From: a virus
Lineage: Duplodnaviria; Caudoviricetes
Reading direction: 5' to 3' (one strand)
IMG/VR virus record: IMGVR_UViG_3300007515_000008
Span: 1 to 63,835 of that record
Length of the DNA: 63,835 nucleotides
A program made the translations under genes and the position numbers. This document shows positions 9,810 to 44,924 of the stretch, one piece after another. Position 1 is the stretch's first letter, and the number at the start of each line of letters is the position of its first letter. The notes under the pieces are model-generated. The model worked only from the letters and a program-made list of their open reading frames with translations, was not told where the DNA came from and ran no database searches.

Positions 9810-9833
9810 GGATAATAATTAAGAGGTAATGAT

Positions 9834-10232: not shown

Positions 10233-10673
10233 ATGTATGAGATAAAGCGAGTTGAAGGAGAAGATGTTCTCAAAAGATATAATGTAATTAAGATAGAAAT
10301 AGATAAAGCTATGGTACATTCTAGTCGTGAATGGACTGCAGCTGAAATAATTAAACATGTTATAGCTGAACCAAATCTGTTTCAGGTATGGGAAGTATTA
10401 GAAGATAATACTACTATAGCATTTGCTACGACACGTGTATTGCAATATAATAATTTTATTGCTTTACATATTATTAGTTTAGGTGGTTCGGATATTTATA
10501 ATAAAATTCCTGCCCTGATAACTATATTTGAAGATATGGTTAAAAAACATGAGAACATAGATGTACTCGAATATACAGGCCGTAGAGGCTTTGTAAAGCA
10601 ATTAACTACGGTAGGGTGGACTGAAAAATACACCACAATGCGTAAAAGTCTAAAGGAGAATTTTAATGTCTAA
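10233..10673 (+). CDS. GNAT-fold-like virion assembly protein (P22 gp14-like position)
   Basis: Size, position before ejection genes, EYTGRRGF...VGW motif. Confidence 0.5.
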   Translation: MYEIKRVEGEDVLKRYNVIKIEIDKAMVHSSREWTAAEIIKHVIAEPNLFQVWEVLEDNTTIAFATTRVLQYNNFIALHIISLGGSDIYNKIPALITIFEDMVKKHENIDVLEYTGRRGFVKQLTTVGWTEKYTTMRKSLKENFNV

Positions 10674-11376
10674 AATTAAAATTTATGATGGTGTTGTCAT
10701 AGACATGGCGACAAGCAACATAATAAAAGAAGGCAAAGTTAGTTATGCAAACTCTGATCAAGTCGCATATACTAAAGGTGGTGATAAAACTCAGGTAACT
10801 AATACAGGTGTTGCCTCAGAATTTAAACCCCAAATATCAAGCATGCTTGGTACTGCTGAAAGTTTATATGGATCTGGAAAATTAGGTGCAGTAGCAGGAT
10901 TTACTCCTGAACAAATGGCTGCGCAACAACAATCGCAAGTATTAGCTCAAAACCAATTAGGTTTAGAAAGTGGTATAGCAGGACTTGCTCAACAACCTCT
11001 AAATTTACAAGGTATGAGAACTGCAGCCGCAACACAAGCACAACAAGCTTTAGGTTTAAATGCTTATGGTGCTGGTCGTGCTGGTGGTTTAGGTGGATCT
11101 AGACAGTATTTAAATCAAGCGAATATACAGAATGATCTTGCTGCTAAGTTTGCTGGTATTGATTTACAAGCTCAGCAAGGACAATTTGATCGAATGCAAC
11201 AAGCACTTGGTGCTCAAGGAGCAGGAGCTAAAACTCTTTCAGCTCTTGGTGCAGCGACTCAACAACAAGCACAGAATGAAGCTGATGCAGCTTATAAAGG
11301 TTTACAACAATATGCTAGTGTTTTTGGTACTGCAGCTCCTAAGGAGACTGTAACAACTTCAACTGGAGGTAAGTAA
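10666..11376 (+). CDS. Small ejection (internal virion) protein
   Basis: A/Q/G-rich helical sequence with GGLGGSRQ motif, typical of podovirus pilot proteins. Confidence 0.6.
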   Translation: MSKIKIYDGVVIDMATSNIIKEGKVSYANSDQVAYTKGGDKTQVTNTGVASEFKPQISSMLGTAESLYGSGKLGAVAGFTPEQMAAQQQSQVLAQNQLGLESGIAGLAQQPLNLQGMRTAAATQAQQALGLNAYGAGRAGGLGGSRQYLNQANIQNDLAAKFAGIDLQAQQGQFDRMQQALGAQGAGAKTLSALGAATQQQAQNEADAAYKGLQQYASVFGTAAPKETVTTSTGGK

Positions 11377-11933
11377 TGGCTGTTGACAGACCTAAAAAAA
11401 TTAATGAGATGACTTACCAAGAATGGTTAAATCTTAGTCCCAAAAGACAGAGAGATCAAAAAGAACACATGAGAAGAATAGATACTGGAATAGGTACTTT
11501 ATATCCATATGAAGCTGCAAAACGATATTATAATAAGAATTCCCCTGGTGCTGGAATTGGTGCTTGGTCACCTTATGATTTAAATTTAGGAGTAGCTACT
11601 CAAAGTAAATTTGAACCTATAGTAGGTAGTAATGTTGGTATTAAAGCTCCAACACATCAAGACACTAGTCAAATAGGTGCTGAAGAAAGAGCAACTGGTA
11701 AAGCTGTTGGTGGTACTGTAGGTGGTATTGTTGCGGCTATGATGGGTTTACCTCCGCAAGTAGGTGTTGCAGCTGGTAGTGCTTTAGGTGGAGGTGGTAG
11801 TGTAGGAGAAACTGCTACATCTGCTTTAGGAGGATATGCTGACGAGATAAAACCTGGTGATGAAGGTAAAATAAAAGATTTCATAAAACAAGATACTAGT
11901 GTTCCAGATGTTTGGGGTCATCCAGCAAGATGA
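11376..11933 (+). CDS. Ejection protein with glycine-zipper segment
   Basis: GKAVGGTVGGIVAAMMG...AAGSALGG; position in cluster. Confidence 0.5.
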   Translation: MAVDRPKKINEMTYQEWLNLSPKRQRDQKEHMRRIDTGIGTLYPYEAAKRYYNKNSPGAGIGAWSPYDLNLGVATQSKFEPIVGSNVGIKAPTHQDTSQIGAEERATGKAVGGTVGGIVAAMMGLPPQVGVAAGSALGGGGSVGETATSALGGYADEIKPGDEGKIKDFIKQDTSVPDVWGHPAR

Positions 11934-11959
11934 TTACGATTTAATTAAAGGAGAAATAT

Positions 11960-14119: not shown

Positions 14120-14128
14120 GAGTGGTTT

Positions 14129-17100
14129 ATGACTTTAGAAGTCAATATTATTAAAGGTAATACACCAGTTCCAAAGTTTAATATGAGTGGTTTTACTGGT
14201 GCAGCTATGTACCAAGATATGGATATCGATGGAGAGAATCGTAACTTCCGTTGGGAAGATGGTGATACAGTATACGATGATATAACAGATCAAGGTTATA
14301 GACTCCGTGGTTTTGATGCTCTTGAAACAGAGCATATAGGTTTAGATAAACAAATATATAAGTCTGGTGAAGTTGGTGGTGAGACTCAGAAGAGAAAGTT
14401 TTATGAACTTGCTAAGAAATTAGGTTATAACAAACTTGTTAAGACAGGTGAGAAAGATGAGTACGGTAGACATATAGCTGATTTACAAAATGCTCAAGGT
14501 CAATCATTTGCTACCTCATTATATTCAAATGGGTTAATGCATACTAATCATTTTACTTCCGAAAAAGATAAACAAGCTTATGAGAGTAGACATTTTAATA
14601 GTCTTATGGGTATTGATACTACTACTAGTGAGTGGGGTAAAGCTAAAGCTGAAATAGATGATTACATGAATAAATCAACATTAGTTGATAAAAATGGTAA
14701 TCCTTTAATGAAAGTAAAAGCCATGAATGAATGGGAGTTAAATAATGCTCAAATAGCTTCTGAACTTTATGGTGTTATAAATCCTTATATGGATCATACA
14801 GTAGAATATCGACATGAAGGTATGGATATATATGGTAAAGCTTACAATCCTTTTAGAGCTGGTTTAAAACAAGGCTGGATGAGTATATTAGAAGGCGCAA
14901 GCGGAGCTAAATCTGTATTAGGTTCTTTAGTTGGTAATCAACGTTGGTACGAACAAGGTATGTTGAATGCTGAATCTCGTGCTGAAGATATGAAAAGACT
15001 TCCTAGTTTTGTTCAAGATATCCATGATGTAGATTTTGGAGAGAATGCTGCAGAATATATTATGGGTTTAGGTGGTGTCGCTATACCTTATATGTTAGGA
15101 ATTATTGGTGCTGGTGTTGCTGGAACTCTAGCTGTAGGTGCAGGAGCTACTGGATTAATGGCCGCACTTGGAACTGGAATAGCTATAACGCCTATTGCAG
15201 CAGTTTATGCTGGTGAAGTATTTAATAATATGGAAGGAGATATTAATACCAAGGATCCAAAAGTTGCTATAACAGCTGGAATAGCTATGTCTGTTTTAGA
15301 TAGGTTAGGTTTAAAAGGTATTCTAAAACCTTCTCAAGTATTAAAAAAAGATGGTTATAAACAAGTAGAAGAACAACTTGTTAAACGAGAAATAGATGGT
15401 ATAAAAAATAGATTTATTAATGAAGAAATAAATATATTAAAAAAATCAGATAAATATGCTAAAATGAATTCTTCACAGAAGAAAACAGCAGAAGCAGGAG
15501 CTAGAACAAGAGGCTCAAATAGATATGATAATATGAATGCCTCACAAAGAGCTGTAGCAGAACAAGGTGCTAAAACAAGAGCTGCTCATCAACTAGCAGA
15601 AGCTAAAGTACAAGGTGTTTTAGGTTTAGTTAAATCAATGGCTGGACATGCAGATATTCAGATTAAGAAACAATTATTATTAAAAGAGTTTGGTATTGGT
15701 ATGATGAAAGGTACTGCTATTGAATCAGCTACTGAGACTATGCAAGAAGGTATTGGTAATATAGCATCTGCTTATGGATCTGAAAAAGATTTTAATTGGG
15801 CTGAGTTTCAAAACATTGTAGAGAATGCTGCTGTTGGTGGTGCTTTAATGGGTGGTACTATTGGTGGTGTTTCAAGTGGCGTTTCAGGTTATGGTTCTAT
15901 TAAGAAGATGCAATCAGATTATGGCACTGCTAAAGAAAATGCCGGTGATGGATTCTTTAATTATGCTGAAGATTCAGATGGTAATACTTTAGGACATGTA
16001 TTAGGTGAAGATGGTAGTGCTTTAGGATATGTTACAACTCCTAATGGACATACATATTCTAAACCTATGACTCAACTTGAGTTTGATAACGATCCAGATA
16101 TGAGAGGAAACAAGTGGAGTGTTATCAATAAGATGACAGAAGATCAAAAGAATAATAATAGTAATTTTAAAAATAATACGTGGGAACCTGCATTTGTTGA
16201 TGTTGAAGATATTAACGATGAGATAGTAAATGCTTTTGATTCAGATACAGATATGAATGACTCTGAAATACAACGTCAAATAGATGAAGAAATAAAAATA
16301 GGTGAGGGTAAAGGTCAGACTGAAGCTGGAGAAGTTATTATACCTAAGATGACTTTATGGGAGAGAGCTAAAAAACTTCCTAAACAAATGTTTATGAAAT
16401 ATGGAGCTATTGAAGCTGGTAAATTAAATGATCCTGATCTTAATCCTACTGCTAAAAGATATCTTAGTGCTTTACTACAAACATTCGCGCAGTCTAATAT
16501 AGGTTTAGCTGTTGGTGTTGGTTTTATGAAAGTCAAAGGTAGACTAACACAAGGTTTTACTCAAGAATCTACTAATTTAAAAACCGCTTTACTTAATACT
16601 GTTAATAAACCCAATACATCTAAAGGTGTTGAAGAAGCTACTCAAACATTTAGAGAGTTTGTAGAAAGTAAAAGAGCAATGGAACGTGGAGATAAAACTC
16701 TTCAAGAACATAAAACCCAATGGGGTGCGATGGAAAAAAGACTTGATGTTATTCATAATAGAATGACTCAGTTGACTGATACATTACGTAAAGTAGTTAA
16801 TGCTAATGCCTTTGAAGAAGGTGAAGCGAAGATGGGTTATGTAGAAGATTGGTTCTTTAATTCTGCTAAACTAGATACTTCAAAACTTGTTAAAGGTAAA
16901 GGAGCTTTTGTTAATGCACTCCAACAAGATTGGACGCATCCTAAAACTGGTCAAGTACATAAAGGTATTAGTAAAGAAGCAGCTGAAGATTTATATGAAA
17001 AATTAGTATTTGATTTTAAAGGTCAAAGAGAAGTTTTAACAGATAGTATTTATCATACTACAACTGATGCTGATGCTACTAAGAAAGTTACATTAAATAT

Positions 17101-18760
17101 TAATGACAATCCTTTAATGCAAGATTTCCTGCATACAGATCATTTCGGAAAGTTAGATAATAATATACATGATATGGTTAATTTTGCTATAGATATGAAA
17201 TATTTAGGTAGAAATGATATCAAACTTAACAAAATGATTATGAAAGTTAAGGATGTTATGGGAGATAAATGGGATCCTAGTATAGCAGCAACAGTTAGAA
17301 ATTCTGTAGATACACAACGTGGTAAATACAAAGCTATACGTAGTAAAGCTTTAAAGAAAGCTCAAGATCATATTACTTTCTTTAATACATTAACTCAATT
17401 AGATACTTCAATGCTAGCGTCTTTACCTGAGTTAGCACTAGTTATGGTTGGTGCTGCATATCACAAAGGACTTATCAATATAGTACGTCAAGGTGCTAAA
17501 GACGTAGGTAAACACTATGCTGGGACAGCGAGAATGACTAAGGGAAGACTTAAAGGACAAAGCCTTACTGACCCTACATTAGAAGATGTTATGCCTACTC
17601 CACGAATAATTGAAAATTTTGGTGGTAGAGAAGGCGACGGTATGGTAGATAGAGTAGCTAGAGATCGTTTAGATATTTCTATAGAAAATATCAACATGAA
17701 TCGTCTTAGTTTTTATGGTGGTATGTATGGAACAGCTCAACACGGTGTGCTTGGTGCTGTTGATATTGACTCAGCAGCTTATAATTCTCACAAATGGAGA
17801 ACTTGGATTTTAGAATCATTCTTTCGTATGAATGGTCTTAAGTTCTTAACAGATGGAGCAAGAGTAGCTAGACTTGCAATAGCTAATGATGCTATTTTTA
17901 CTGATTTAGAAATTATTAATGGTTTCTATGAAGTTGGTAAAACAAATAGTAATTATGCTAATGATGCTTATGAAAGATTAAGAGAGTTAAATATTGATCC
18001 AGTTAAGACTGCTAAATTATATGCGAATGCTACTAACGAAGTTGGAAAATTAGCAGCATACGGTACTGAAGGTTTCCAACCAAAGAAAGATGGAAAACTT
18101 GATACACAGGTATTACATGAATATATATTTAAAAATCATGCTGAGCTTTATAATATATTAGAAGATGGTAGAATATCTTTTGTTGATAACGCATTAGCAA
18201 GACCAACATCTGTTGATAGGCCTTTATGGTATTCTAATCCTCACTTCAGGTTACTTACTCAGTATCAAGGTTTCTTATCAACATTTACTTCTCATATAAT
18301 ACCGAAGTTATATAAGAGAGCTAAGAAAGCAGATCCAACTCTGAGATATCAAGCATTTGCAGTTGCTGCTACTATGTTAGCTCTTGCTATACTTGGTCAG
18401 GAATTAAAAGATGAATGGAAATTTGGAAGACATAGTCCTTATGTTGATACAAATTTAAAGACTGCTCAAAGAGCTTTAAGTGCTTCTGGTTTATTAGGTA
18501 CTGGTCATAGATTATTAGACTTTGTACATCCAATATATACTAGTAAACCAAGATATAATCAGACTACTTTAGATCAATTAGGTAGATTTGCTGGACATAC
18601 TATTGAAGAATTTGGTGGTCCTACTGGTGGTACAGTTAAAAATGCTAGTAGAATAGCTACTAATTTAATTAGTGGTAAGAATGCTACTGCTTTATATTAT
18701 GCAAGAAATTGGATACCACTAATTGGTAGACATCAGAAAGGTGAAAGACCTTATGAATAA
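14129..18760 (+). CDS. Large ejection protein with N-terminal thermonuclease (SNase)-like domain
   Basis: 1543 aa; EDGDT...RLRGFDALE...DEYGR at the N-terminus; hydrophobic Gly/Ala membrane-inserting segments. Confidence 0.7.
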   Translation: MTLEVNIIKGNTPVPKFNMSGFTGAAMYQDMDIDGENRNFRWEDGDTVYDDITDQGYRLRGFDALETEHIGLDKQIYKSGEVGGETQKRKFYELAKKLGYNKLVKTGEKDEYGRHIADLQNAQGQSFATSLYSNGLMHTNHFTSEKDKQAYESRHFNSLMGIDTTTSEWGKAKAEIDDYMNKSTLVDKNGNPLMKVKAMNEWELNNAQIASELYGVINPYMDHTVEYRHEGMDIYGKAYNPFRAGLKQGWMSILEGASGAKSVLGSLVGNQRWYEQGMLNAESRAEDMKRLPSFVQDIHDVDFGENAAEYIMGLGGVAIPYMLGIIGAGVAGTLAVGAGATGLMAALGTGIAITPIAAVYAGEVFNNMEGDINTKDPKVAITAGIAMSVLDRLGLKGILKPSQVLKKDGYKQVEEQLVKREIDGIKNRFINEEINILKKSDKYAKMNSSQKKTAEAGARTRGSNRYDNMNASQRAVAEQGAKTRAAHQLAEAKVQGVLGLVKSMAGHADIQIKKQLLLKEFGIGMMKGTAIESATETMQEGIGNIASAYGSEKDFNWAEFQNIVENAAVGGALMGGTIGGVSSGVSGYGSIKKMQSDYGTAKENAGDGFFNYAEDSDGNTLGHVLGEDGSALGYVTTPNGHTYSKPMTQLEFDNDPDMRGNKWSVINKMTEDQKNNNSNFKNNTWEPAFVDVEDINDEIVNAFDSDTDMNDSEIQRQIDEEIKIGEGKGQTEAGEVIIPKMTLWERAKKLPKQMFMKYGAIEAGKLNDPDLNPTAKRYLSALLQTFAQSNIGLAVGVGFMKVKGRLTQGFTQESTNLKTALLNTVNKPNTSKGVEEATQTFREFVESKRAMERGDKTLQEHKTQWGAMEKRLDVIHNRMTQLTDTLRKVVNANAFEEGEAKMGYVEDWFFNSAKLDTSKLVKGKGAFVNALQQDWTHPKTGQVHKGISKEAAEDLYEKLVFDFKGQREVLTDSIYHTTTDADATKKVTLNINDNPLMQDFLHTDHFGKLDNNIHDMVNFAIDMKYLGRNDIKLNKMIMKVKDVMGDKWDPSIAATVRNSVDTQRGKYKAIRSKALKKAQDHITFFNTLTQLDTSMLASLPELALVMVGAAYHKGLINIVRQGAKDVGKHYAGTARMTKGRLKGQSLTDPTLEDVMPTPRIIENFGGREGDGMVDRVARDRLDISIENINMNRLSFYGGMYGTAQHGVLGAVDIDSAAYNSHKWRTWILESFFRMNGLKFLTDGARVARLAIANDAIFTDLEIINGFYEVGKTNSNYANDAYERLRELNIDPVKTAKLYANATNEVGKLAAYGTEGFQPKKDGKLDTQVLHEYIFKNHAELYNILEDGRISFVDNALARPTSVDRPLWYSNPHFRLLTQYQGFLSTFTSHIIPKLYKRAKKADPTLRYQAFAVAATMLALAILGQELKDEWKFGRHSPYVDTNLKTAQRALSASGLLGTGHRLLDFVHPIYTSKPRYNQTTLDQLGRFAGHTIEEFGGPTGGTVKNASRIATNLISGKNATALYYARNWIPLIGRHQKGERPYE

Positions 18761-18773
18761 ATAGGAGATATAT

Positions 18774-21700
18774 ATGGGTAAGTATACTGGTGGTAAAAGT
18801 TCTGCTAATCAAAAAACAGATCTTAAAAAACCTAAGTTTAATATGGAAGGTTTCAAACCTTCTGAAGAAGACGCTGGTAATATTGAAAGAAAACGATTAG
18901 CTTTATCACAAGCAGCTAAAAAAGCCTCGCAAATTGAAAGAGATCAAAGAGGTAAAGAAATACCTGAATATTCTAAAGAATGGTCTGAAGCTCGTAGAGC
19001 TAGACTTGAAAGGCAATTAGCTCAACAAGAATATGAAAAAGTTTTAATGAACTTAGATCAACAATCAAGTCTTAATAATGATTTAATTGATGATGTTTAT
19101 GGAGGTACTCAAGATACTACTGGTCAAATAGGTACACCTATAGTAGAAGAAGCAACAGCTCCTGAACAAACAATATATTCTACTCCAGAAGAAGCTCCTG
19201 ATACAGGCACGGGTTTTCCTGGAAATGAACCTGAATCATTAGGTGTGGGTCCTGGAGGAATAGCTGTTACCGATCCTATTGGAACTATGTCTAAAGCTCC
19301 TTTAATAGAGGCTATATTATCTATACCTCAGGAACAAAGAACTACATGGATGTGGAATCAACTTGATGAGCATGGTCCTGAACATTATGATAGGATGCAA
19401 GCTGTAGATCGTGAGATGGTAGATCAAGATGAAGATACTGGAGATCGTCCAAGTCCTATAAGTAAGGTTCAAATACCATACCAAGAAAAAATGCAGATGA
19501 TGCATGATAGTCATGAGATGGGTAGGCAAATACAAAGAGAGATGGATAGACTCTGGGAATCAGGTCAACTTTATGCAAATCAACCAGGACAACCGGGTTG
19601 GGATCGTGCAGATAATGCGGCTATGCTTCAACGTATTAAAGATGGTGAGTTTACAGTAGAATCTGTTCGTGATTTTATGGAAGGTATAGTTACTACTCAT
19701 GAAGAATTAGCGAGAAGAGGTGTTCCTAATGCTCTTTCTGATGTTATGTTACATTCAGTATTACATCAGATAAGAGAGGCTTATAGAAGAAAAGGAGATC
19801 CTGATGATATTAGAGGGCGTGAAGAAGCTATAAGAGATTCTGGTGCTGCACCAACTACTCAAGAAGAAAATGACCAGAGAATAGTTATGAGAGCTCACGA
19901 CCATCGTGAGATAGGTAACTTAATTCTTGGAGCTATGGGTATAGCGCCTGATAGTCGTAATGTTAATAATACTACAGCAGGTACTATTGCTAATAATATG
20001 GTAGCAAAAGTATTTCCAGATTTATTTTATAAAGATTCAAAAGGTAATACTGTAGTTTCTCAAGAAGGTTTTAATACAGCAGAACGTATGCTTCCTATGA
20101 CACAAACTATATTACCACAAGTTAAAATAGGTGTTAGATTTAAAAAGAAAACTACTCAAAGTAATATACAACGACCTCGTTCAGGAGATAAAGATGTTTA
20201 TTATGGAGATTATGATTTAGTTAATGACACTATAGATGTTCTTGATAATCAAGCATGGACAATTGATCAAGATTTTGTTAGAGTTGTAGATGCTCTTGTT
20301 CAATCTGTTGAAACAGATGTTAATGGTAATGTTGTTCTTACAAATATAGATAAATTAATTGGTATAGGTCCAGAAGATACCGGTCAATTAAATAATAGAA
20401 CAGGTGAGCGTAGAAAGAAAGATCCTAGAACAGGACGAGATGTTCTTGATGAAAATGGTCAACCAGTAATGGAATGGTACGCAGGAGATAGAATTAAAGA
20501 TGTTATCTTCAATGATAATATGGATTGGGCTATAGCATTAGGTAATGATAGATTTTATTATGATCACTTTTTAGGTGGAAATAATAGATTTTATATTTCA
20601 CAGTTTGTTGGTAATTATCATAGTCATAAATTAGCTAGAGCTATGTTAATGGCTGATTTTATAGAAATGTATGATACTTCAAATCCTGTTACATTAATGG
20701 AATTAAAAGCAGGAATTGCTAAAAAGTTTGGAAAAAATAAAATGGGTGTTCAAGCAGCTGCAGATTATTTTGATGCTAACATTCAAAGATGGTCTAATAT
20801 GATGGACAATATTAGAGAAGATGGTAAAGCTATTATTGATTTAGCTTATGATAATGATGGATGGGCTTCTGTTAGCGCTTTAACCGAAGCTAAAAAACTA
20901 TTTGATCATTTACGAGATGTTGAAGCAGGTAAATCTAATACAGTATATACATCTAAATTTCTTACTGAGATTGATGGAACAGGAAATGGATTAGCTCATA
21001 ATGCTTTACAAGCTGGTGATTTTAATACAGCATTATTAACTAATATTAATCCTTATTTTAATGCTCCAAAAGGCACTGCTAGAGTAGATAAAGATGGTAA
21101 TTTATTAGAGCATGATGTATATCATGTTACTGGTTCTGGGTTAAAAGCTCAATTAGAATCATTAGCTGATGAAGCAGATGCTGATTATCTTAATCAAGCT
21201 TTTGTAGCATTAGGTCTTATAAATGATAAAACAAGAAGAGATTTTTCAAAAGCACCTTTAATGATATTTCAATATGGAGCAGGTAGAAATTTAATAAAAA
21301 GAATTGTTCGTGAAAATGTATTGTTAATGTTAGAAGATGAAGGTACTTTAAATGCTTTTAATCAGGTAGCTATAGCAATGGGTAAAGATCCTAAAACTAA
21401 AGCACAGATACAAGAAGCTATAGAAGCTGGTGATTTTGAAGGTAGTTCTAATTATAGAGATGCTGATTGGATCATTGATCGTATGGGTGATATGATGGTT
21501 AAGTCTGTAGAAAGTAATTTTCCCATGCTTAAAGACTTAAGTAATATATTATCATCAATGGCTAATGCTGCTTCACTTCATCAACCACCTATTGATTTAT
21601 CAGTTATTACTATAGGTGGGCATCGTATTAATTTTGGCCATACTATGTGGGAGAAAGATGAGGTTAGATCTTTTGTAGATACTGTAAATAAAGGAGATTA

Positions 21701-22421
21701 CAAACAATCTACAAAGTTTGATGTAGCTGAGAAGAATTTATATCCACAAGGTAGAACTATCTTTACTAAAACTAAAGAAGGTAGAGATATTCAAATGAAA
21801 AGAAAGGCTACAGGAACTGAGCCTAATCCTTTTTATAGAAATGATTGGAAAGAACATCCTATTTTTAATCCTCCAGAAGTTCCAATAGGAACTTTAAAAG
21901 CTGCAACTCAAGCAGCGGTATTAATGACTCACTCACTTGATGGTATAAATGTGGCATTATCATTAACACAATTTAAGAAAGATCATACTCAAGCAGGTGT
22001 AGCCCAAATATTTGATGGCTTTTTAGTAACACCAAAAATGGCTAGACAATTAGCTACACAACTTAATAAAGATTTTCTTGATATAAATTTTGGGAAAGGT
22101 GGGCGTTCAAGAACATCAGGTCATGGTATTCTTGGTCCAGAAGATACTGTAGCTGATGCTCGTAAAGATGCTAAAAACTTAAATCTATACAATCCAGATA
22201 CACGATATGATTTCTTAATGAATAATCCTAATAATAGTAATGTATTATTATTATATAGAGCTATGGCTAGATTAGGATTTAGATGGGACGACTATAAAGG
22301 TGGTGGTCTTGTTGAAAGAATTAAAAAGTTTGAACAACAAAGAAAAGCTTATCGTAAGAAATTCTTAAAGAAAGATGGTACTTTAAACTATGATTCTACT
22401 AAGCAATACTTTTGGGATTAA
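18774..22421 (+). CDS. Putative virion-encapsidated single-subunit RNA polymerase (N4 vRNAP-like)
   Basis: FLGGNNRFY (DxxGR-equivalent), motif A EIDGTGNG, motif B RDFSKAPLMIFQYG, THSLDG, motif C QIFDGF; last gene of the ejection cluster. Confidence 0.85.
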   Translation: MGKYTGGKSSANQKTDLKKPKFNMEGFKPSEEDAGNIERKRLALSQAAKKASQIERDQRGKEIPEYSKEWSEARRARLERQLAQQEYEKVLMNLDQQSSLNNDLIDDVYGGTQDTTGQIGTPIVEEATAPEQTIYSTPEEAPDTGTGFPGNEPESLGVGPGGIAVTDPIGTMSKAPLIEAILSIPQEQRTTWMWNQLDEHGPEHYDRMQAVDREMVDQDEDTGDRPSPISKVQIPYQEKMQMMHDSHEMGRQIQREMDRLWESGQLYANQPGQPGWDRADNAAMLQRIKDGEFTVESVRDFMEGIVTTHEELARRGVPNALSDVMLHSVLHQIREAYRRKGDPDDIRGREEAIRDSGAAPTTQEENDQRIVMRAHDHREIGNLILGAMGIAPDSRNVNNTTAGTIANNMVAKVFPDLFYKDSKGNTVVSQEGFNTAERMLPMTQTILPQVKIGVRFKKKTTQSNIQRPRSGDKDVYYGDYDLVNDTIDVLDNQAWTIDQDFVRVVDALVQSVETDVNGNVVLTNIDKLIGIGPEDTGQLNNRTGERRKKDPRTGRDVLDENGQPVMEWYAGDRIKDVIFNDNMDWAIALGNDRFYYDHFLGGNNRFYISQFVGNYHSHKLARAMLMADFIEMYDTSNPVTLMELKAGIAKKFGKNKMGVQAAADYFDANIQRWSNMMDNIREDGKAIIDLAYDNDGWASVSALTEAKKLFDHLRDVEAGKSNTVYTSKFLTEIDGTGNGLAHNALQAGDFNTALLTNINPYFNAPKGTARVDKDGNLLEHDVYHVTGSGLKAQLESLADEADADYLNQAFVALGLINDKTRRDFSKAPLMIFQYGAGRNLIKRIVRENVLLMLEDEGTLNAFNQVAIAMGKDPKTKAQIQEAIEAGDFEGSSNYRDADWIIDRMGDMMVKSVESNFPMLKDLSNILSSMANAASLHQPPIDLSVITIGGHRINFGHTMWEKDEVRSFVDTVNKGDYKQSTKFDVAEKNLYPQGRTIFTKTKEGRDIQMKRKATGTEPNPFYRNDWKEHPIFNPPEVPIGTLKAATQAAVLMTHSLDGINVALSLTQFKKDHTQAGVAQIFDGFLVTPKMARQLATQLNKDFLDINFGKGGRSRTSGHGILGPEDTVADARKDAKNLNLYNPDTRYDFLMNNPNNSNVLLLYRAMARLGFRWDDYKGGGLVERIKKFEQQRKAYRKKFLKKDGTLNYDSTKQYFWD

Positions 22422-22423
22422 AT

Positions 22424-22470
22424 AAAAAAAACCTACACAGGTCATTACGACTCGTGTAGGTATTTTTTTT
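22424..22470. terminator. Bidirectional intrinsic terminator between the convergent arms
   Basis: A-run, ACCTACAC...GTGTAGGT stem, T-run, between stops at 22421 (+) and 22470 (-). Confidence 0.9.
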
Positions 22471-22787
22471 TACTTGTTAGCTGTGTAACTCTTAATAGCT
22501 TTGTCAACAACCTTTCGTCTTCGCGCTGCTTCCATAGTTGCTTTCTTTACTGCATCTTCTTGGTTCATTCCTTGACGTGTTAATACATTAGCATCCTCGA
22601 TCATGTTTAATTTTTCAATCTCACCTGCTACGTATGCATGAACATCATTACCTTTAAGATTAGGTGGTCGATCTGCATCTGTTCCACCTTTCAATATTGC
22701 TACAGCATCTAACAACTCAGCATCAGTAACACCTGTTCTAGCTAAGATGTTACTATTTTCTTCGAAGTCGTATTTTCCTTCTGCCAT
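22470..22787 (-). CDS. Hypothetical protein
   Basis: 105-aa ORF with RBS, last gene of the - arm. Confidence 0.6.
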   Translation of the reverse strand: MAEGKYDFEENSNILARTGVTDAELLDAVAILKGGTDADRPPNLKGNDVHAYVAGEIEKLNMIEDANVLTRQGMNQEDAVKKATMEAARRRKVVDKAIKSYTANK

Positions 22788-24711: not shown

Positions 24712-26476
24712 ACGCTAAACATTCATCAGTAGCATCACCAAGAGCTACTCTTTCAACTCTTTGACCCATGTTTTCAGCCACTTGAGTGCTTGACGTTCGT
24801 AGATAATATAATGTTTTTAATTTCTTATTGAATGCGCTAAGATGTACGCTGTTAACATATGATTTATCTGATCCAGCTGGAAAGAATAAGTTAACACTTT
24901 GTGATTGACATATATATTTTTGTCTATCACTTGCGTGTTGTACAATCCAATGCTGATCTAATTCAAATGCTGTTTTAAATACATCGCGCTCCCAATCAGT
25001 TAAGTAGTCTAGTTGTTGAACAGATCCTTGATGGTGACCTATATTCCGCCACTCTCTTTCTAGCCATTCTTTATCCTTACCTAGTCTTAACCTGTGCTCT
25101 TCCATCACCTCTTTCAGGTGTTTGTTTTTTATTAAGTGTGAACCAACCCTGGTTTTATGTATAAAACTATTAGATTTAATAGGTTCTATAGACGGGGATG
25201 TTCCTATGATCATTCCGCTGTTAGCATTCGGCGCTATAGCTAAGAGATGACTATTTCTATCACCACTTCCTTTACCAAAAGGATATTCATACTTACGTTT
25301 AGCTAAGTTTTTAGTAGCTTTTTTAGCTCTGCTTTTAATATGTGAAAATATTCTTTTGTTCTGACCTACTGCTAAAGCAGATTCCCATGGAATGCTTTTA
25401 GATTGTAAGTAAGAATGAAAACCCATAGCTCCTAATCCTAAAGATCTCTCTGTCTTAGCACTGTTCACCGCTCTAAATAAAGGCTCTGGTGCTTGAGCTA
25501 TAAATTTAGTTAATACGTTATCTAACATTTCAATTAAATCTTCTACTATAGTAGAGTCTTTCCACTCATCAAACTTTTCTAAGTTCAAACTACTTAAACA
25601 GCAAACAGCTGTTCTCTTTGAATCAGTAGGTAGTATAATCTCAGCACAAAGATTACTACCTTTTACTTCTAATCCTTTCTTTTTAAGAAATTCAGGTAGT
25701 TTTCTATTGCTTTCATCGATGAAGTGAATATAAGGTTCACCTGTTCTAAAGCGAGTTTCCAGTATTCTTTCCCATAGTTCTCTCGCACGGATCGTATCAC
25801 GTATTGTATCATCGTGAGGATCAATAAGATCCCAATCACTGTCATTAGTAACACATTCCATAAAAGCATCAGTAATATTAACAGCATTGTTAATGTTAAA
25901 GCACTTGCGATTTGAATCACCACCAGAGGGAATCCTGATATTGAGGAACTCGATAATATCTGGGTGTCTGACGTCCAAGTATGCTGCATAACTCCCCTTC
26001 CTTGTTTGTCCTTGTTTATAAGCAGTCATCGCTGAGTCTGCTACCTTAATAAAAGGTATAGGACTCGGAGCTTTATCACTCACAGCTCTTACATCTGACC
26101 AATGACCTCCAACACCTCCACCTTTAACACTTAACCAAGCTAATTCTGATTGATGATCTATCAAACCTTCTAATGTATCAGGTATATAATTCAGAAAACA
26201 ACTTATAGGTAAGCCTAATGGTTTCTCTCCTGGAGCTGGTGCGTTACTTAATATAGGACTACTAAACATAAACCAACCATTACTGACTCCGTCATATAAT
26301 CGTTGAGCTAATTTCATATCTTTTTCGCAATATGCTAAACATGCTCTAGCATAAGCCTCTTGTGGAGATCTTTCTTTTCCTCTAAGATAGTGAGCTTTTA
26401 ATAAATCAATAGCTTGATCGCTTATTTCTCTATCTTTAGATCTGTTTATTTCTATTCCTAAATATTTACTTTTCAT
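24701..26476 (-). CDS. nrdA: Ribonucleotide reductase class Ia alpha subunit (short, no ATP cone)
   Basis: PISCF, KGGGVG, SNLCAE, AVCCLSSLNL, AIAPNANS, TLYY, C-terminal CLACEG. Confidence 0.96.
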   Translation of the reverse strand: MKSKYLGIEINRSKDREISDQAIDLLKAHYLRGKERSPQEAYARACLAYCEKDMKLAQRLYDGVSNGWFMFSSPILSNAPAPGEKPLGLPISCFLNYIPDTLEGLIDHQSELAWLSVKGGGVGGHWSDVRAVSDKAPSPIPFIKVADSAMTAYKQGQTRKGSYAAYLDVRHPDIIEFLNIRIPSGGDSNRKCFNINNAVNITDAFMECVTNDSDWDLIDPHDDTIRDTIRARELWERILETRFRTGEPYIHFIDESNRKLPEFLKKKGLEVKGSNLCAEIILPTDSKRTAVCCLSSLNLEKFDEWKDSTIVEDLIEMLDNVLTKFIAQAPEPLFRAVNSAKTERSLGLGAMGFHSYLQSKSIPWESALAVGQNKRIFSHIKSRAKKATKNLAKRKYEYPFGKGSGDRNSHLLAIAPNANSGMIIGTSPSIEPIKSNSFIHKTRVGSHLIKNKHLKEVMEEHRLRLGKDKEWLEREWRNIGHHQGSVQQLDYLTDWERDVFKTAFELDQHWIVQHASDRQKYICQSQSVNLFFPAGSDKSYVNSVHLSAFNKKLKTLYYLRTSSTQVAENMGQRVERVALGDATDECLACEG

Positions 26477-26478
26477 TT

Positions 26479-26682
26479 TTAATCCTCTTTAATAACTTTA
26501 ACTTCTATTATTTCATCTCCGTCGTTATCACGGCTGATGTTGTACTTTATTCTTGATCTTGCATGTTCCTTTAAAGCATAACATATACCGTCTTCAAATG
26601 ATGTTTGTTTTTCTCTACGCATCCAAAGGTAGATAAACAAACAAGTTCCTATTGTGCTAATTATTATTTGATAAGTTTCCAT
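26479..26682 (-). CDS. Small membrane-anchored protein
   Basis: 67 aa, N-terminal TM helix, AAGGAG RBS. Confidence 0.55.
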   Translation of the reverse strand: METYQIIISTIGTCLFIYLWMRREKQTSFEDGICYALKEHARSRIKYNISRDNDGDEIIEVKVIKED

Positions 26683-26692
26683 ATCTTTCTCC

Positions 26693-26872
26693 TTAATGAT
26701 ATTTATTAATTTCGTCTAACTCTAAAGTTAGATATTCAAAGCCAAGTTTCTTAAGCTCTTCGCAAGTTTGCAGCCAAGCTATACATTCTGTTAAAACTCT
26801 TTCGTCTTTCGAGTGTGTTATTACTGTTTTTATTTTACTTTTTACATCATTCACGTGTATCTGTTGACTCAC
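26693..26872 (-). CDS. 59-aa hypothetical protein (not in ORF track)
   Basis: GTG start after AAGGAG; fills the gap between neighbours. Confidence 0.5.
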   Translation of the reverse strand: MSQQIHVNDVKSKIKTVITHSKDERVLTECIAWLQTCEELKKLGFEYLTLELDEINKYH

Positions 26873-27284
26873 ATTCTTCTCCTTCTATTTCTAATATAAC
26901 ATAATCTTCCTTATTATCGTCATACCCTCCGAAATGTGATGAGAATCCAGTTACTATTTCATTGTGATCATCTTTAATAGCTTCATATTCTACCATTGCA
27001 TCCATTAAAAACTTGTGCAATGCCCACGTAAAGTTATCTATATCTCGTTTTCTTTTGTTTCCGAAATATAAAGTATAATGTATTGTTAATTTATTGTATT
27101 TTGGTAAAGACTCCACGAAGTTTTTTACTTCCTCGTGGTAGTCTTTTTTAGCTTTAGCTAGTGTTGCCCAATGTAAATTTCTATATAAATTACCAGTAAG
27201 TATTCCAGCTTTACCTTTCTTTATATATAATGGGAAGTTCAACCTAGCTATCAACCTTTTGCTCCTGTCATTGTAATAGTCCAA
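26847..27284 (-). CDS. RusA-like Holliday junction resolvase
   Basis: RDIDNF...KFLMDAMV...IKDD motif. Confidence 0.8.
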   Translation of the reverse strand: MDYYNDRSKRLIARLNFPLYIKKGKAGILTGNLYRNLHWATLAKAKKDYHEEVKNFVESLPKYNKLTIHYTLYFGNKRKRDIDNFTWALHKFLMDAMVEYEAIKDDHNEIVTGFSSHFGGYDDNKEDYVILEIEGEECESTDTRE

Positions 27285-28087
27285 CGATCTTTATCAGGAT
27301 TATGTCGTACTCTTACTCCAGCTCCTTGATGAGACTGACCGTCGCATAGTTCTATTAACTTTTTCTTCATAGTTTCCATGCGTCCTTCTTGTAGTTGCTT
27401 TTCTTCACGTGCCATTTTCCAGAAGAATGCTAACTCTTTCCATTCTTGATCTTCACGTTTAATAATATCATTAACTCCAGGCTCAGGTTTCCCCTTAAAA
27501 TATTCTTTCCATGAACTTAAGATATCATCACGGAGTTCTGGTTGGGTTTTATGAATCCTATGTAGACCTTCTTTATTATGTCTGTCATAAACCCAAAAGT
27601 TACAATGATCTTCACCTGAAAGTAACATTTGTTGTTCCATTTGAATTTGATATTGAAATGGAAGTTCTTCATTATTTAACATTGTCTTCCATAATGGAGA
27701 CTCTGATCCATTTAATGGTACTTTGATTTCTACAATCTCAGATCCACTCCATTTCTGACGACCATCTAATGAAGCCATTAACGGTAATCCTTCTATTTCG
27801 TCAACTATACAGCATGGTTCGAAAACAGTTCCATGATAATGTTGCCAAGATTCTCTAGCTTCATCTTCAAATTCACTACCTATTGTCATCGCGAAGTTTT
27901 GTTTAACTTCTAACTCTCCGTTCTTTAACTCCCATAGTTGTAATGGTGTTTTAGGAATCCACGGACTAACGCCCATAGCTGAAGCAGCTTCAGAAGCTGT
28001 ACCATATTTCCTTCTAAACTTTAACCAAAGTTCACTACCTTGTGGCATTGAATTTTCGTCATACAACCTTGTTGTTTCACTATACAT
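27251..28087 (-). CDS. YqaJ/lambda-exonuclease-like nuclease
   Basis: QGSELWLKFR...TASE, ASLDG...EIK, YQIQMEQQM. Confidence 0.9.
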   Translation of the reverse strand: MYSETTRLYDENSMPQGSELWLKFRRKYGTASEAASAMGVSPWIPKTPLQLWELKNGELEVKQNFAMTIGSEFEDEARESWQHYHGTVFEPCCIVDEIEGLPLMASLDGRQKWSGSEIVEIKVPLNGSESPLWKTMLNNEELPFQYQIQMEQQMLLSGEDHCNFWVYDRHNKEGLHRIHKTQPELRDDILSSWKEYFKGKPEPGVNDIIKREDQEWKELAFFWKMAREEKQLQEGRMETMKKKLIELCDGQSHQGAGVRVRHNPDKDRWTITMTGAKG

Positions 28088-28101
28088 ATTATTACTCCTT
28101 A

Positions 28102-32378: not shown

Positions 32379-32400
32379 CTCTATAAGGGAGTGGTCGAAT
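32379..32400 (-). promoter_or_regulatory. Candidate phage RNAP promoter for middle genes, ATTCGACCACTCCCTTATAGAG
   Basis: Identical 22-mer at 43843 in opposite orientation; T7-promoter-like; overlaps the RNAP stop codon. Confidence 0.75.
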
Positions 32401-34841
32401 TAGCAGAAGAAATAATCTGAATCTATTAATTCTAGTAAGTTGAGTTTCCCTTTCTTCGGTTCAGGTTCTACAAATAGAGGATCATTATTTATAATTTGTC
32501 CTCTCATATCTTTAAATATATTCTTATCATATATATCTATAAATGTTTCTTTTGTTATATGTAATAACTCAGGTACGTTTTCAGCGTGTACACTAAAACT
32601 ATCGTGTATTGCACCAAATGATAAGATACCTGCTTTTTGTAATTCAATTATGACTAACGACATGTGAGCTGCATCCATTGAATGTACATAATTCGGACTG
32701 ATTCCTGAAATCATTTCATGCATTGCAGGACGTTCAGTTTGTTCGTGTACTACTACTTGTATTCTTCCTTGTGTAAATGGTAGTTCTATCTTCTTTTTGT
32801 TCATAATCCACTTCTCAGACACACATGGGAACCCGCTAGGACTTACCCAGCATACTGTATCTTCATTTTGTACACCTACCCTATGCTTGACTAAGGCTTG
32901 TAAGTAATTTTTAATAGAAACAGGACCAGAACAAATTGCATTATAAGTGTGCACAAGATCTTTTGATAGCTTTTTCGCTATTGTTTTTGTGATTCCGTAT
33001 TTTGTTGTCATACCAGCGTCATAGCAATCCATGTAAATAATATCAGCTATACATTTCACTCCAGCATCATAAGCTTTAGTCATAGTTCCTCTTTTACTAA
33101 TACCTTTTCGTATTAATTTCATAGGTATTTCTGCTAATATTTTACCTAAATCAGTACCAATATTTCTATTAAGAATTCCTTTAGCTACTACTATATAAAA
33201 GTCTATTGGTTTTTCTTGTGGAATTAATCCAACCATTCTACCAGCTATTTCATCTTTTGACATCGCAGCTAGATGTTGAGTTCCATTAGAAGATCCATCA
33301 ATAGCAATTGGTAGATTTGAATAATGCTCTTCACCTGATAATACTGAACCATGATAAGCACATATTTCAAAACATATTGATAAGAAAACCCAAGGTTTTT
33401 CAGCTGCCATCCAAATATCTTTAGTACCTATAGGATCTTCTGCTATATTCCAAAATAATTCAGTGTTTTGTTCTGACCATTCTTGTCGATCTTCTAATGA
33501 CATTTTATCTACTGAAAGATCTGGTATTCCATCAGTAACAAGGTCCGTTATATAGTTCGTTTTAGTCCATTCTAATTCAGTTAATTCTGCTACTGTATAG
33601 GACTGATTATAACTATTTGCAGCATGTATTAATAAATATTTAAATCCTTTTTCAGTTACTAGTTGTTTCTCAGCAAATTGTAAATGTCCTCTTGCTAGGT
33701 CATTAGATTGATAAGAAAAGTATGGATCTCTAGCATATACTCTTCCTCTAAAGTCAAGAAACATAGATAAGTAAAATGTGTAAGATGCCCAACCGTTTAT
33801 TCCATGTATGCTATTTAATATTGCATGGTTTCTTGCAGCTTTTGATTGTGTCGCTAAGCATAGTTGTTTTGCTGTCCACATTAAATTGTGTTTGTCAAAT
33901 AATTTACTAAGTTTAGCTATGCTTTTCTTACACTTTTGCATTGCTTTTCCATCTATTTTCAGGTTATTCTTGCGCTTCTCTTCTTTACTTAATTGAGCTT
34001 CAATTGTTTTAACTGTTGTAGCATTTCCTTTGTGAGGTTCGAATAGTGATCCATCTTTATAAAGATTAACGTCTTTATATATTTCATTTATATTTTCTCT
34101 TCTAATATCTTTTGTATCAAATTCAATTTCATCACCATTTTCTGTTTTTAGTTTTATTATTGTTTCAGTTAATTTGTTTGTTAATTGTTCACTCACTTTC
34201 GCAACACTAGCATTTACGCACCACTTAACTTTCTCTAATGTATTAACTGCTTTCACATATTCATCGTATCTATCAATTTCTTTTATCGAGCTTTTAATTA
34301 GTCGATCTTTAATTCCGTCTACCATTCTTACGTTTTGTTTCCAAGCAGGATATTGGTGTCTCGATATTCCTATTCTTTCTTTGTCATCTAATATTATGTT
34401 TCCATATCTATGTCCCATTTCTAAATGATATGGCTGCAGACGCACAGTTCTTTTTTGTCCTCGTTCCATAATTTCTTCTATTGTAAAGAAAGGTTCTCTT
34501 GTTAGTATTAAATATTCGTTATCGATAAGTGTGTTCAGTACTAAACAACCAAGTTTCATTTTAATAACTATATTATCGTTTTCTATATTTAAGTGCCTCA
34601 CGATTATTTCACCAACATTCATATTAGTGTTGGTCAACATAATTTTCCCTTCGTGTCTTTGAAATGTTGATGTAAGATAATTAAACGTTTCTTTAATTAT
34701 ATTCACCATTCGGAAATCATCTCTAAGACAGTTTGCATTTCTTACTTCTTTAATTGCAGAATTATTATTATTTGCACTTCCACTCTGCATGATCTTTTCT
34801 TCTATCGACCAAACTATTTCTTGTACATTACTGTTTTCCAT
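32400..34841 (-). CDS. T7/T3-like single-subunit DNA-directed RNA polymerase
   Basis: LDFRGRVY, SNDLARGHL, AEKPWVFL, PIAIDGSSNGTQH, KRGTMTKAY, PNYVHSMDAAHM, IHDSF, C-terminal YFFC; GGAGG RBS before 34841. Confidence 0.96.
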   Translation of the reverse strand: MENSNVQEIVWSIEEKIMQSGSANNNNSAIKEVRNANCLRDDFRMVNIIKETFNYLTSTFQRHEGKIMLTNTNMNVGEIIVRHLNIENDNIVIKMKLGCLVLNTLIDNEYLILTREPFFTIEEIMERGQKRTVRLQPYHLEMGHRYGNIILDDKERIGISRHQYPAWKQNVRMVDGIKDRLIKSSIKEIDRYDEYVKAVNTLEKVKWCVNASVAKVSEQLTNKLTETIIKLKTENGDEIEFDTKDIRRENINEIYKDVNLYKDGSLFEPHKGNATTVKTIEAQLSKEEKRKNNLKIDGKAMQKCKKSIAKLSKLFDKHNLMWTAKQLCLATQSKAARNHAILNSIHGINGWASYTFYLSMFLDFRGRVYARDPYFSYQSNDLARGHLQFAEKQLVTEKGFKYLLIHAANSYNQSYTVAELTELEWTKTNYITDLVTDGIPDLSVDKMSLEDRQEWSEQNTELFWNIAEDPIGTKDIWMAAEKPWVFLSICFEICAYHGSVLSGEEHYSNLPIAIDGSSNGTQHLAAMSKDEIAGRMVGLIPQEKPIDFYIVVAKGILNRNIGTDLGKILAEIPMKLIRKGISKRGTMTKAYDAGVKCIADIIYMDCYDAGMTTKYGITKTIAKKLSKDLVHTYNAICSGPVSIKNYLQALVKHRVGVQNEDTVCWVSPSGFPCVSEKWIMNKKKIELPFTQGRIQVVVHEQTERPAMHEMISGISPNYVHSMDAAHMSLVIIELQKAGILSFGAIHDSFSVHAENVPELLHITKETFIDIYDKNIFKDMRGQIINNDPLFVEPEPKKGKLNLLELIDSDYFFC

Positions 34842-35061
34842 AATTTCCTCCATAATCATTATCAACTAAATATTTATTATCATCAATTTCTATTACATAT
34901 CCTACTTCTAATGCTTTCTTTAGAAGTTGATCTTCATCTAATTCAAAGTTAAAATTAGGTGCTTGATTCATAAATAGCTCATGTTTAGTAAAAATTACTT
35001 CTTCAACAATTTGAATTGTTTTAACTTTTCCTGGAATTGTCCAGTTATTATTGCTTTTCAT
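34828..35061 (-). CDS. Hypothetical protein
   Basis: 77-aa ORF with AGGAG RBS. Confidence 0.55.
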   Translation of the reverse strand: MKSNNNWTIPGKVKTIQIVEEVIFTKHELFMNQAPNFNFELDEDQLLKKALEVGYVIEIDDNKYLVDNDYGGNYGKQ

Positions 35062-43842: not shown

Positions 43843-43864
43843 ATTCGACCACTCCCTTATAGAG
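43843..43864 (+). promoter_or_regulatory. Candidate phage RNAP promoter for the late arm, ATTCGACCACTCCCTTATAGAG
   Basis: Exact inverted copy of 32379..32400; intergenic; points toward terminase and structural genes. Confidence 0.7.
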
Positions 43865-44820: not shown

Positions 44821-44876
44821 TGATCTTGATCTCTTATCTCTGATCTCTTGATCTGAAGCTCGGGGGCACTTGATCT
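44821..44876. repeat. Cluster of five TGATCT hexamers and ATCTCTT heptamers at the divergent junction
   Basis: TGATCT at 44821, 44827, 44841, 44849 and 44871; ATCTCTT x3 also at 44421..44441. Confidence 0.8.
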
Positions 44877-44924
44877 TATGCTCGTAGGCTCTTTATATAG
44901 ATTTAACCCACAGGTGATAAACAT

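Follow-up and report, generated by a model that had tools for sequence, protein, structure and literature searches.

The window analysed here is an entire IMG/VR virus record of the Caudoviricetes (IMGVR_UViG_3300007515_000008; 63,835 bp, CheckV completeness 100%). The last gene of its late arm (18774..22421, plus strand) encodes a 1215-amino acid (aa) protein, P0001, which on sequence evidence is apparently an active single-subunit RNA polymerase (RNAP) of a new, compact and cysteine-free family. With moderate confidence, we consider this protein to be an injected early transcriptase, similar in its action to the N4 virion RNA polymerase (vRNAP) but a stand-alone enzyme of 1.0-1.7 thousand residues carried by a CRP-7-like phage lineage. 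To our knowledge, injected single-subunit RNAPs have so far been known only as the giant gp50 of N4-like phages.

Motifs and predicted fold of the 1215-aa polymerase

The gene was assigned as a divergent single-subunit RNAP from the open reading frame (ORF) list, its Pfam match, fold matches and the absence of Cys. The protein scores 32.1 bits on Pfam RNA_pol (PF00940), above the cut-off of 22 bits (E 7e-8), with 29.7 bits obtained when the whole genome was scanned, and it matches the PHROGs family phrog_414, 'RNA polymerase', with an E-value of 8.8e-14. Computed coordinates confirmed the ORF and the catalytic motifs reported in the first-pass annotation of this DNA, all on the plus strand: motif A, EIDGTGNG, begins at aa 732 (20967..20990) and contains the catalytic D734; motif B, RRDFSKAPLMIFQYG, begins at aa 821 (21234..21278) and fits RxxxKxxxMxxxYG with K826 and Y834; motif C, IFDG, begins at aa 1079 (22008..22019), contains the catalytic D1081 and is of the N4 type (FDG, not HDS). 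The family alignment also revealed an equivalent of the T/DxxGR motif, GGNNRFY, at aa 601-607 (20574..20594), in which the Arg is retained and the Gly is not. In an alignment of 43 family members, sharing 19-62% identity with the window protein, R605, D734, G735, N738, K826 and Y834 never vary, and conservation of D1081 is 90% or higher.

Structural modelling suggested that these motifs sit in a familiar fold. An AlphaFold2 model of aa 300-1215 (19671..22418, plus strand), computed with the family alignment as input, gave a predicted local distance difference test score (pLDDT) of 82.9 and a predicted template modelling score (pTM) of 0.84, and Foldseek matched it to the yeast and human mitochondrial, T7 and N4 polymerases at E-values from 1e-16 to 7e-12. 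The right-hand polymerase fold was thus found in the comparison that the first-pass annotation had proposed, with N4 mini-vRNAP and T7 RNAP both matched. VIA-align gave the best Z against T7 RNAP (28.2 over 528 aa, 4.4 Å), followed by the yeast mitochondrial enzyme (26.6, 605 aa), the human mitochondrial enzyme (24.1) and N4 mini-vRNAP (22.7, 684 aa), with other mini-vRNAP entries at 22.4-22.6 over 687-700 aa and 5.0-5.4 Å. The fold alignments cover model residues 1-914, model residue 1 (aa 300) pairing with T7 residue ~99, and the predicted N-terminal domain, palm, fingers and thumb correspond to T7 RNAP residues ~99-883; the T7-type N-terminal domain is whole in the model and an exonuclease domain is absent. 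The model therefore allows the body to be described confidently as a complete, T7-sized single-subunit RNAP with a right-hand fold. A sequence search of the PDB with the single 1215-aa protein returned chance matches only, and a profile of the 43 relatives found the yeast mitochondrial RNAP at an E-value of 1.1e-6, with no N4 chains among the matches listed.

Ahead of the body lies an N-terminal extension (aa 1-300; 18774..19673, plus strand) without a counterpart in T7 RNAP, delimited by conservation, composition and the fold alignment. It had been described as a roughly 300-aa low-complexity N-terminus. A biased composition (disorder-promoting residues 0.57-0.71 vs 0.50 in the remainder) and lower conservation (0.28-0.58 vs mostly 0.5-0.85) were indeed observed, but sequence entropy is barely lower than elsewhere (3.64 vs 3.75 bits). 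About 200-300 extra residues precede the polymerase body, and the protein continues for 135 aa beyond motif C. In each of the 55 family sequences compared, a set that leaves out the truncated window query and proteins cut at contig ends, 644 aa or more separate motif A from the N-terminus (537 aa in T7).

A family with a fixed place behind a presumed ejection protein

A word-indexed search recovered nine relatives of 1205-1230 aa with close similarity (52-60% identity) and a further one with 32% identity, and an exhaustive phmmer search of 1.84 billion protein representatives recovered 50 family proteins at E<=0.001, mostly of 1000-1430 aa. Full-length members span 1007-1699 aa, bearing out the earlier description of a compact, stand-alone polymerase encoded by a separate gene.

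The genomic setting was examined by a pattern scan of IMG/VR with the family alignment, which gave 28 loci, 23 of them with a family member, whose ORFs were compared to those of the window. At 18 of the 23 loci the polymerase gene (1023-1668 aa) directly follows a homologue of the window's 1543-aa protein and is the last plus-strand gene before a convergent replication arm; the remaining five loci are cut at or just ahead of the polymerase gene. Since L007/L009 and L012/L013 are near-identical pairs, the 18 syntenic loci amount to about 16 independent ones. In the window, the polymerase gene begins 13 nucleotides (nt) past the stop of the 1543-aa gene, with an AGGAGA ribosome-binding site between the two. 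It is followed by a bidirectional terminator-like hairpin (22424..22471), read from the sequence as an A-run, arms ACCTACAC and GTGTAGGT around a 15-nt loop and a T-run, which separates the convergent late and middle arms and went unlisted by the pattern scanner owing to the length of its loop. The earlier placement of the polymerase as the last gene of the ejection cluster therefore holds, with the 1543-aa gene just ahead and the terminator just behind.

Absence of cysteine from the polymerase family and its neighbours

None of the 60 family members contains a single Cys (72,762 residues). In the window the polymerase closes a cysteine-free run of eight consecutive late genes (8322-22421; 495, 115, 146, 236, 185, 719, 1543 and 1215 aa, 4,654 residues); the other window ORFs average 0.99% Cys, and the chance of 1215 residues without Cys is ~6e-6. 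All 15 homologues of the 1543-aa protein are likewise free of Cys, as are N4 gp50 (3500 aa), gp51 and gp52, five of five further N4-like vRNAP segments, T7 gp15 and gp16, and CRP-7 gp33-35. All 11 T7-like polymerases, including those of T7, the window and CRP-7 and both Foturvirus enzymes, have 9-15 Cys. The absence of Cys thus separates virion-class from cytoplasmic-class polymerases in every case examined, and this sequence trait is the strongest indirect support for packaging. Together with the synteny at 18 of 23 loci, this total lack of Cys, in common with known ejected proteins, strengthens the case that the polymerase would be packaged. A cysteine-free run may be a general sequence marker of ejected proteins. 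No report on cysteine-free ejection proteins was found in the literature; in its available text, the paper on StenR_269 guesses a vRNAP from size and lack of cysteine, without motifs (PMC10747016).

Relation to N4-like and T7-like polymerases

The first-pass annotation had taken ExDGxxNG and IFDG as N4 style and IHDS as T7 style, and this holds on the fetched sequences, N4 reading VEADGVTNG and KIFDG and T7 reading FDGSCSG and IHDS. In the family, motif A starts with Glu in at least 43 of 60 members and with His in at least eight more, and motif C is FDG or YDG (43 of 60 by a strict pattern). The N4-like vRNAPs carry E[ALV]DGxTNG at motif A in five of six cases, non-N4 ones reading E[LV]DG[LVIM]TNG, and [IV]FDG at motif C in all four in which motif B anchored the search. 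Among the T7-like enzymes, motif A is DG[ST]C[NS]G in eight of ten (the window's T7-like polymerase has IDGSSNG and that of relative L012 IDGSVNG), and motif C is HDS in nine of the ten examined, one not being caught by the pattern. The H-D pair of motif C is also present in two of three family A DNA polymerases examined (IHDA, YHDE). The FDG common to the family and the N4-likes is a hint, from sequence motifs, at common descent with N4 vRNAP.

With filters off, a 60-member family hidden Markov model (HMM) scored 32.8 bits on N4 mini-vRNAP, 13.2 on T7 RNAP and 9.2 on the window's T7-like enzyme; on N4 gp50 it gave no positive score outside residues 1542-1698. Single Foturvirus gp3-type polymerases scored above N4, at 49-58 bits, and in hhalign at 118-141 vs 85 for N4 mini-vRNAP. 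In profile-profile comparisons the family scored 175 over 332 columns against six N4-likes (E 7e-19) and 207 over 496 columns against eleven T7-likes (E 5e-23), and the N4-like and T7-like profiles scored 91 against each other (E 1e-9), lower than the family's score to either group. Among predicted viral structures the best match was an N4-like virion polymerase (E 9.3e-19), with T7-likes close behind.

For phylogenetic analysis, 58 of the 60 family sequences with a usable motif A were thinned to 45 non-redundant rows, and the partial L031 protein was excluded from the T7-like group. An unrooted tree built with every second of the 45 rows (23) contained three well-supported groups, the family, the N4-likes and the T7-likes, joined at one node; being unrooted, it carries no information on whether the family is sister to the N4 or the T7 group. 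A second tree, with every third row (15), took its root from three phage family A DNA polymerases; this outgroup had long branches and was non-monophyletic, and the rooting was unreliable. The approximately unbiased (AU) test did not reject a clade of the family and N4 (p 0.32), a result that is uninformative in both directions.

Since the family profile is closer to the N4-like and T7-like groups than these are to each other, and the derived FDG is common to the family and the N4-likes, we tentatively raise, as a possible though doubtful origin, that the family is a sister or ancestral form of the N4 vRNAP polymerase domain. A compact injected enzyme, encoded by a separate gene behind a membrane-spanning ejection protein, would later have been fused and enlarged into the 3,500-residue gp50 of the Schitoviridae, and phages with the compact form would have no need of host RNAP.

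The comparison with individual systems can be set out along the same lines. N4 gp50 (mini-vRNAP 2PO4 and 3C2P; full length 9PNQ/9PNT) has in common with the window protein the single-subunit fold, ExDGxxNG at motif A, FDG at motif C and the absence of Cys. The N4 late arm closes with gp53, gp52, gp51 and then gp50, transcribed towards the middle genes, as is the window polymerase gene, and N4 also encodes a T7-related polymerase for its later genes, which in the window is a single unsplit T7-like protein. The window protein differs from gp50 in its length of 1215 aa, in lacking the large C-terminal domain and a detectable N4-type N-terminal domain, and in belonging to a phage whose capsid and portal are not N4-like; hairpin promoters were not identified in the five early regions compared. 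The available text of a survey of uncultured N4-like viruses gives reference N4-like vRNAPs as 2,842-3,820 aa and the ExDGxxxG signature, which the window protein has as EIDGTGNG, as a vRNAP filter (PMC10654107). With T7 RNAP and the Autographiviridae the window protein has in common the fold (best Z), a PF00940 score above the cut-off, the motif B spacing RxxxKxxxMxxxYG and a body of ~900 aa. It differs from them in FDG and GGNNR in place of HDS and DxxGR, in having 0 vs 9-15 Cys, in the N-terminal extension of 100-640 aa found in the family, and in gene position, which is the end of the virion cluster and outside the early and middle genes.

Two further comparisons concern phages with a second or a packaged polymerase. 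Alteromonas phage vB_AspP-H4/4 (MF278336.1, Foturvirus) likewise encodes two single-subunit polymerases, gp3 and gp29, at 921-3047 and 19779-22169; unlike the window protein, both are HDS-type or have an unmatched motif C, contain 10-14 Cys and lie among early or replication genes. Several Vibrio phages also have two polymerase-matching places per record. The crAss-like phage phi14:2 carries gp66, according to the available part of its description a packaged polymerase for early genes with a DFDxD two-barrel, multisubunit-type catalytic site; it follows the same strategy of a packaged early polymerase with a different fold class, and was set apart by description only.

A co-resident T7-like polymerase and a proposed transcription programme

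The genome is organised in two arms. One, on the minus strand, extends from ~44.9 kb to 22.47 kb, with many small early ORFs followed by genes for primase, T7-like RNAP, MazG, thymidylate synthase, a single-stranded DNA-binding protein (SSB), helicase, exonuclease and ribonucleotide reductase. The plus-strand late arm, roughly 41 kb, runs from 45.3 kb through the record end to 22.42 kb, with terminase, portal, scaffold, capsid, fibre and tail genes followed by the cluster of 146, 236, 185, 719, 1543 and 1215 aa.

The canonical T7-like RNAP (32400..34865, minus strand; an 821-aa frame with 13 Cys and motifs DFRGRVY, IDGSSNG and IHDSF) matches phrog_414 at 1.6e-109 and PF00940 with 229.8 bits. 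The two polymerases of the window are alike at the motif level only (BLASTP E 0.13). A canonical T7-like polymerase was present in nine of nine IMG/VR relatives examined, and PF00940 also detected the divergent copy in eight of these nine. Given the T7-like polymerase in the window and in all nine relatives, the 1215-aa gene would not encode the main transcriptase of the phage.

Two identical copies of a 22-nt T7-type promoter candidate, ATTCGACCACTCCCTTATAGAG, form the exact inverted pair I25. One lies just past the T7-like polymerase gene and faces the middle genes (32379..32400, minus strand), and the other faces the late arm (43843..43864, plus strand) and has one mismatch in relative G001; these are the only two copies in the window allowing up to three mismatches, with 0 expected. 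Since the candidates face the middle and late genes only, the early genes, including that of the T7-like polymerase, would need a host or an injected polymerase.

We propose that the 1215-aa polymerase would fill this place. Its synthesis would come late, alongside that of the structural proteins; it would enter the capsid together with the ejection proteins and be threaded into the host either before the DNA or along with it. Once inside, it may transcribe the early genes, which extend from ~44.9 kb to the gene of the T7-like polymerase (34.9-32.4 kb), independently of host RNAP, and it would probably help to pull the genome in. The T7-like polymerase, an early product, would next use the two identical T7-type promoters to transcribe the middle and late genes.

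No early promoter was identified in the window, and sigma-70-type promoters are not enriched in the early region (66 found vs 68.2 expected). At the point of early/late divergence lies a single-copy conserved non-coding block, CACCTGTGGGTTAAATCTATA...TCAAGTGCCCCC (44860..44917, minus strand), which may be an early promoter, a packaging site or a genome end; its core is identical in G001, 17 of 21 bases are retained in relative G005, and one copy is present in the window. Past this block, 44792-44850 holds short repeats of the AGATCAAGAG type and, ~24 nt upstream of the first early ATG, a hairpin. This hairpin is a candidate only, and its sequence differs in G001. Another hairpin, CCGAATAG-atggg-CTATTCGG, lies upstream of the SSB-like gene at ~42,500-42,520 on the minus strand, with altered stem bases in the G001 version (TCTGAATAG..CTATTCAGA).

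Weighing the proposed injected transcriptase against its alternatives

Several results weigh against an injected, N4-vRNAP-like early transcriptase. That the polymerase is carried in particles, ejected and active, with the early genes serving as its template, is our inference from indirect evidence. The early/late junction, folded as single-stranded DNA, has no significant structure (folding z -1.08), and no N4-type hairpin promoter family is shared in the early regions of the window and four relatives. Among the PHROG matches of the 1215-aa protein the N4 vRNAP family phrog_2206 is missing, the generic phrog_414 alone being matched. The scaffold and two fibre-like window proteins are likewise without Cys, so in this genome the trait marks virion proteins at large. 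When three family proteins were used as tblastn queries against 50,697 deposited phage genomes, none of the three gave a match, so that no cultured phage with a detectable member emerged and all known members come from uncultured viruses. CRP-7 is the sole cultured relative, and its gene at the corresponding place encodes the Cys-free 1235-aa gp33, which is not recognisably a polymerase. Finally, overall similarity does not favour N4: the family is about equidistant from the N4-like and T7-like groups, with both fold Z (28.2 vs 22.7) and profile score (207 vs 175) higher for the T7 side, and of the earlier label 'N4-vRNAP-like' the motif A and C signatures are the part that these comparisons support.

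These points have to be set beside three other accounts of the gene. Foturvirus vB_AspP-H4/4, with its two T7-like polymerases gp3 and gp29, neither in an internal-virion cluster, is a precedent for a second, non-packaged transcriptase that remains inside the infected cell and serves a particular class of genes, and gp3-type sequences are the best scorers against the family profile (hhalign, above). Such an enzyme would, however, be made last, its gene being the last cistron of a ~41-kb late arm and coupled to the 1543-aa gene; all 60 family members lack Cys vs 10-14 in both Foturvirus polymerases; and the only two copies of the T7-type promoter are enough for both the middle and the late arm, which leaves this account unlikely. 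We give little credence to a packaged ejection protein derived from a polymerase and chiefly mechanical, as a DNA-translocating motor or channel part, in which transcription would have become a side function or disappeared. In a family diverged to ~20% identity, the catalytic Asp, Lys, Tyr and Arg are still unchanged or almost so, which argues for retained catalysis, although position, lack of Cys and a variable N-terminal extension all fit an ejection protein, CRP-7 keeps a non-polymerase protein at the same position, and transcription itself is described, in the part of the source available, as helping genome entry in N4 and T7 (PMC4496689).

It is highly improbable that the protein serves in replication, whether by making primers or as the DNA polymerase otherwise lacking from a phage with its own primase, helicase and SSB. 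In favour of such a role, PF00476 (DNA_pol_A) gave zero matches at E<=1 across the window (control positive in 10 of 14 known genomes; other polymerase families not searched), no DNA polymerase is present among the 33 window ORFs annotated with PHROGs, and single-subunit RNAPs and family A DNA polymerases have the same fold. Against it, family A DNA polymerases carry a steric-gate Glu at motif A +5. The window protein has Gly there (DGTGNG), where the DNA polymerase of Alteromonas phage H4/4 shows DYSQLE; its T7-type N-terminal domain is whole and an exonuclease domain absent, and neither the late-operon position nor the lack of Cys fits a replication enzyme. The injected early transcriptase is the reading we prefer.

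Neighbouring genes and the split-polyprotein idea

Directly upstream of the polymerase gene, the 1543-aa Cys-free protein (P0002; 14129..18760, plus strand) is a presumed inner-membrane ejection protein on the basis of its PHROGs match, hydropathy and synteny. It matches phrog_6958, 'virion structural protein' (1.7e-17), and has hydrophobic Gly/Ala-rich segments at aa 310-362 and 1404-1423. Its N-terminus (window 14129-14600) is SNase-like at a level under the Pfam cut-off (E 0.0053, 17.6 vs 21 bits), the D-x-D-T and R/E positions of this region are conserved in 15 homologues, and a protein atlas returned unnamed clusters and one with an SNase domain in 48% of members (score 0.88). The predicted model of aa 760-1543, from 15 sequences, is poor and all-helical (pLDDT 56.1, pTM 0.34). 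The preceding 719-aa Cys-free protein (P0003; 11960..14119, plus strand) belongs to no known family by Pfam and PHROGs and is poorly conserved across the loci. Three small Cys-free genes of 146, 236 and 185 aa (10233..11933, plus strand), defined by locus comparison and Cys count, open the cluster; those of 146 and 236 aa are conserved in relatives and in CRP-7 (gp38, gp37).

The first-pass annotation had suggested that the 719-, 1543- and 1215-aa genes may be a split or ancestral counterpart of the N4 polyprotein, and the split part of this suggestion received no support. The upstream profiles match neither gp50's two terminal domains (N and C) nor gp51-53: profiles of the 719-, 236- and 146-aa proteins, together with an HMM built from 15 sequences homologous to the 1543-aa protein, gave only noise at E<=1 when compared with the gp50 domains, gp51-53 and T7 gp13-16, and in hhalign the same profiles reached probabilities of at most 6.6%. 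N4 has, according to a published description, two ejection proteins of its own besides gp50, gp51 and gp52, and the same text describes the N-terminal domain of gp50 as likely membrane-spanning (PMC13434306). The order also does not match, as the N4 polymerase is central and followed by ~1400 aa, whereas the window protein ends 135 aa past motif C. The ~3,480 aa to which the three genes add up is most reasonably taken as a coincidence. By analogy, a weaker version survives, in which a membrane-type ejection protein encoded as a separate gene immediately upstream would be the arrangement from which a fusion would start.

Implications

In the article texts searched, no description was found of a compact single-subunit polymerase in a virion cluster. 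According to its available text, the survey of uncultured N4-like viruses discarded candidates of <2,500 aa (PMC10654107), and at this threshold the compact family would have been missed. If the injected transcriptase is confirmed, the injected-polymerase strategy would be older and broader than the Schitoviridae and present in an unrelated, widespread marine podovirus lineage, the family would form an evolutionary bridge between T7-type and N4-type polymerases, and a much smaller system would be available for the packaging, unfolding, tail threading and refolding of a polymerase. Should the sister or ancestral origin also be true, the whole programme would run on two single-subunit enzymes, one injected (early) and one T7-like (middle and late). 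For biotechnology, the family may offer a compact new polymerase that follows a promoter rule of its own, and the absence of Cys is a cheap sequence marker, usable to find further ejected enzymes.

Nearest phages and further observations on the genome

The nearest cultured genome is that of Roseobacter phage CRP-7 (MK613349.1; portal 45% and capsid 43% identity), followed by LUZ24-like Pseudomonas phages at ~33% identity, and E. coli phages of 75-79 kb gave distant partial capsid matches only. When the 59 window ORFs were compared by phmmer with 11 N4 late proteins, including capsid gp56, portal gp59 and gp51-55, no match was obtained at E<=1, and among the capsid and portal matches listed none is to a phage identified as N4-like. 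On these sequence comparisons the phage belongs with a CRP-7-like marine podovirus lineage, outside the Schitoviridae. Of the virion module previously labelled 'non-N4 (SU10/phiEco32-type)', the non-N4 character is thus upheld, and the SU10/phiEco32 label is loose, CRP-7 and then LUZ24-like phages being closest.

CRP-7 resembles the window in its two-arm layout and in ending the late arm with the gene for a Cys-free 1235-aa protein, gp33; its gp30 is a T7-like polymerase, and its gp34 is homologous to the 1543-aa protein (258 bits). CRP-7 differs in encoding a DNA polymerase, gp24, none being detected in the window with PF00476. In its available text, the description of CRP-7 mentions only the T7-like ORF30 as a polymerase (PMC6918029). 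We considered gp33 (17859-21566) as a hidden polymerase and obtained no support for this: the motif A-B-like alignment is non-significant, hhalign gave 0.4%, and PF00940 did not match. It may be an extremely diverged or replaced homologue of the window polymerase. CRP-7 gp35 (25696-29367; 1223 aa), which takes the place of the 719-aa gene product, carries at its N-terminus a Pesticin/lysozyme-like domain (27.5 bits, above the 25.8-bit cut-off), a kind of domain typical of wall-cutting ejection proteins.

At the record ends no terminal repeats were found, and the last ORF (from 59647) has no stop inside the record and would close 11 codons beyond the junction 63835/1 if the genome is circular. 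The gene for a 781-aa fibre-like protein (53688-56033) contains a long array of a 36-nt repeat, with 16 copies in register.

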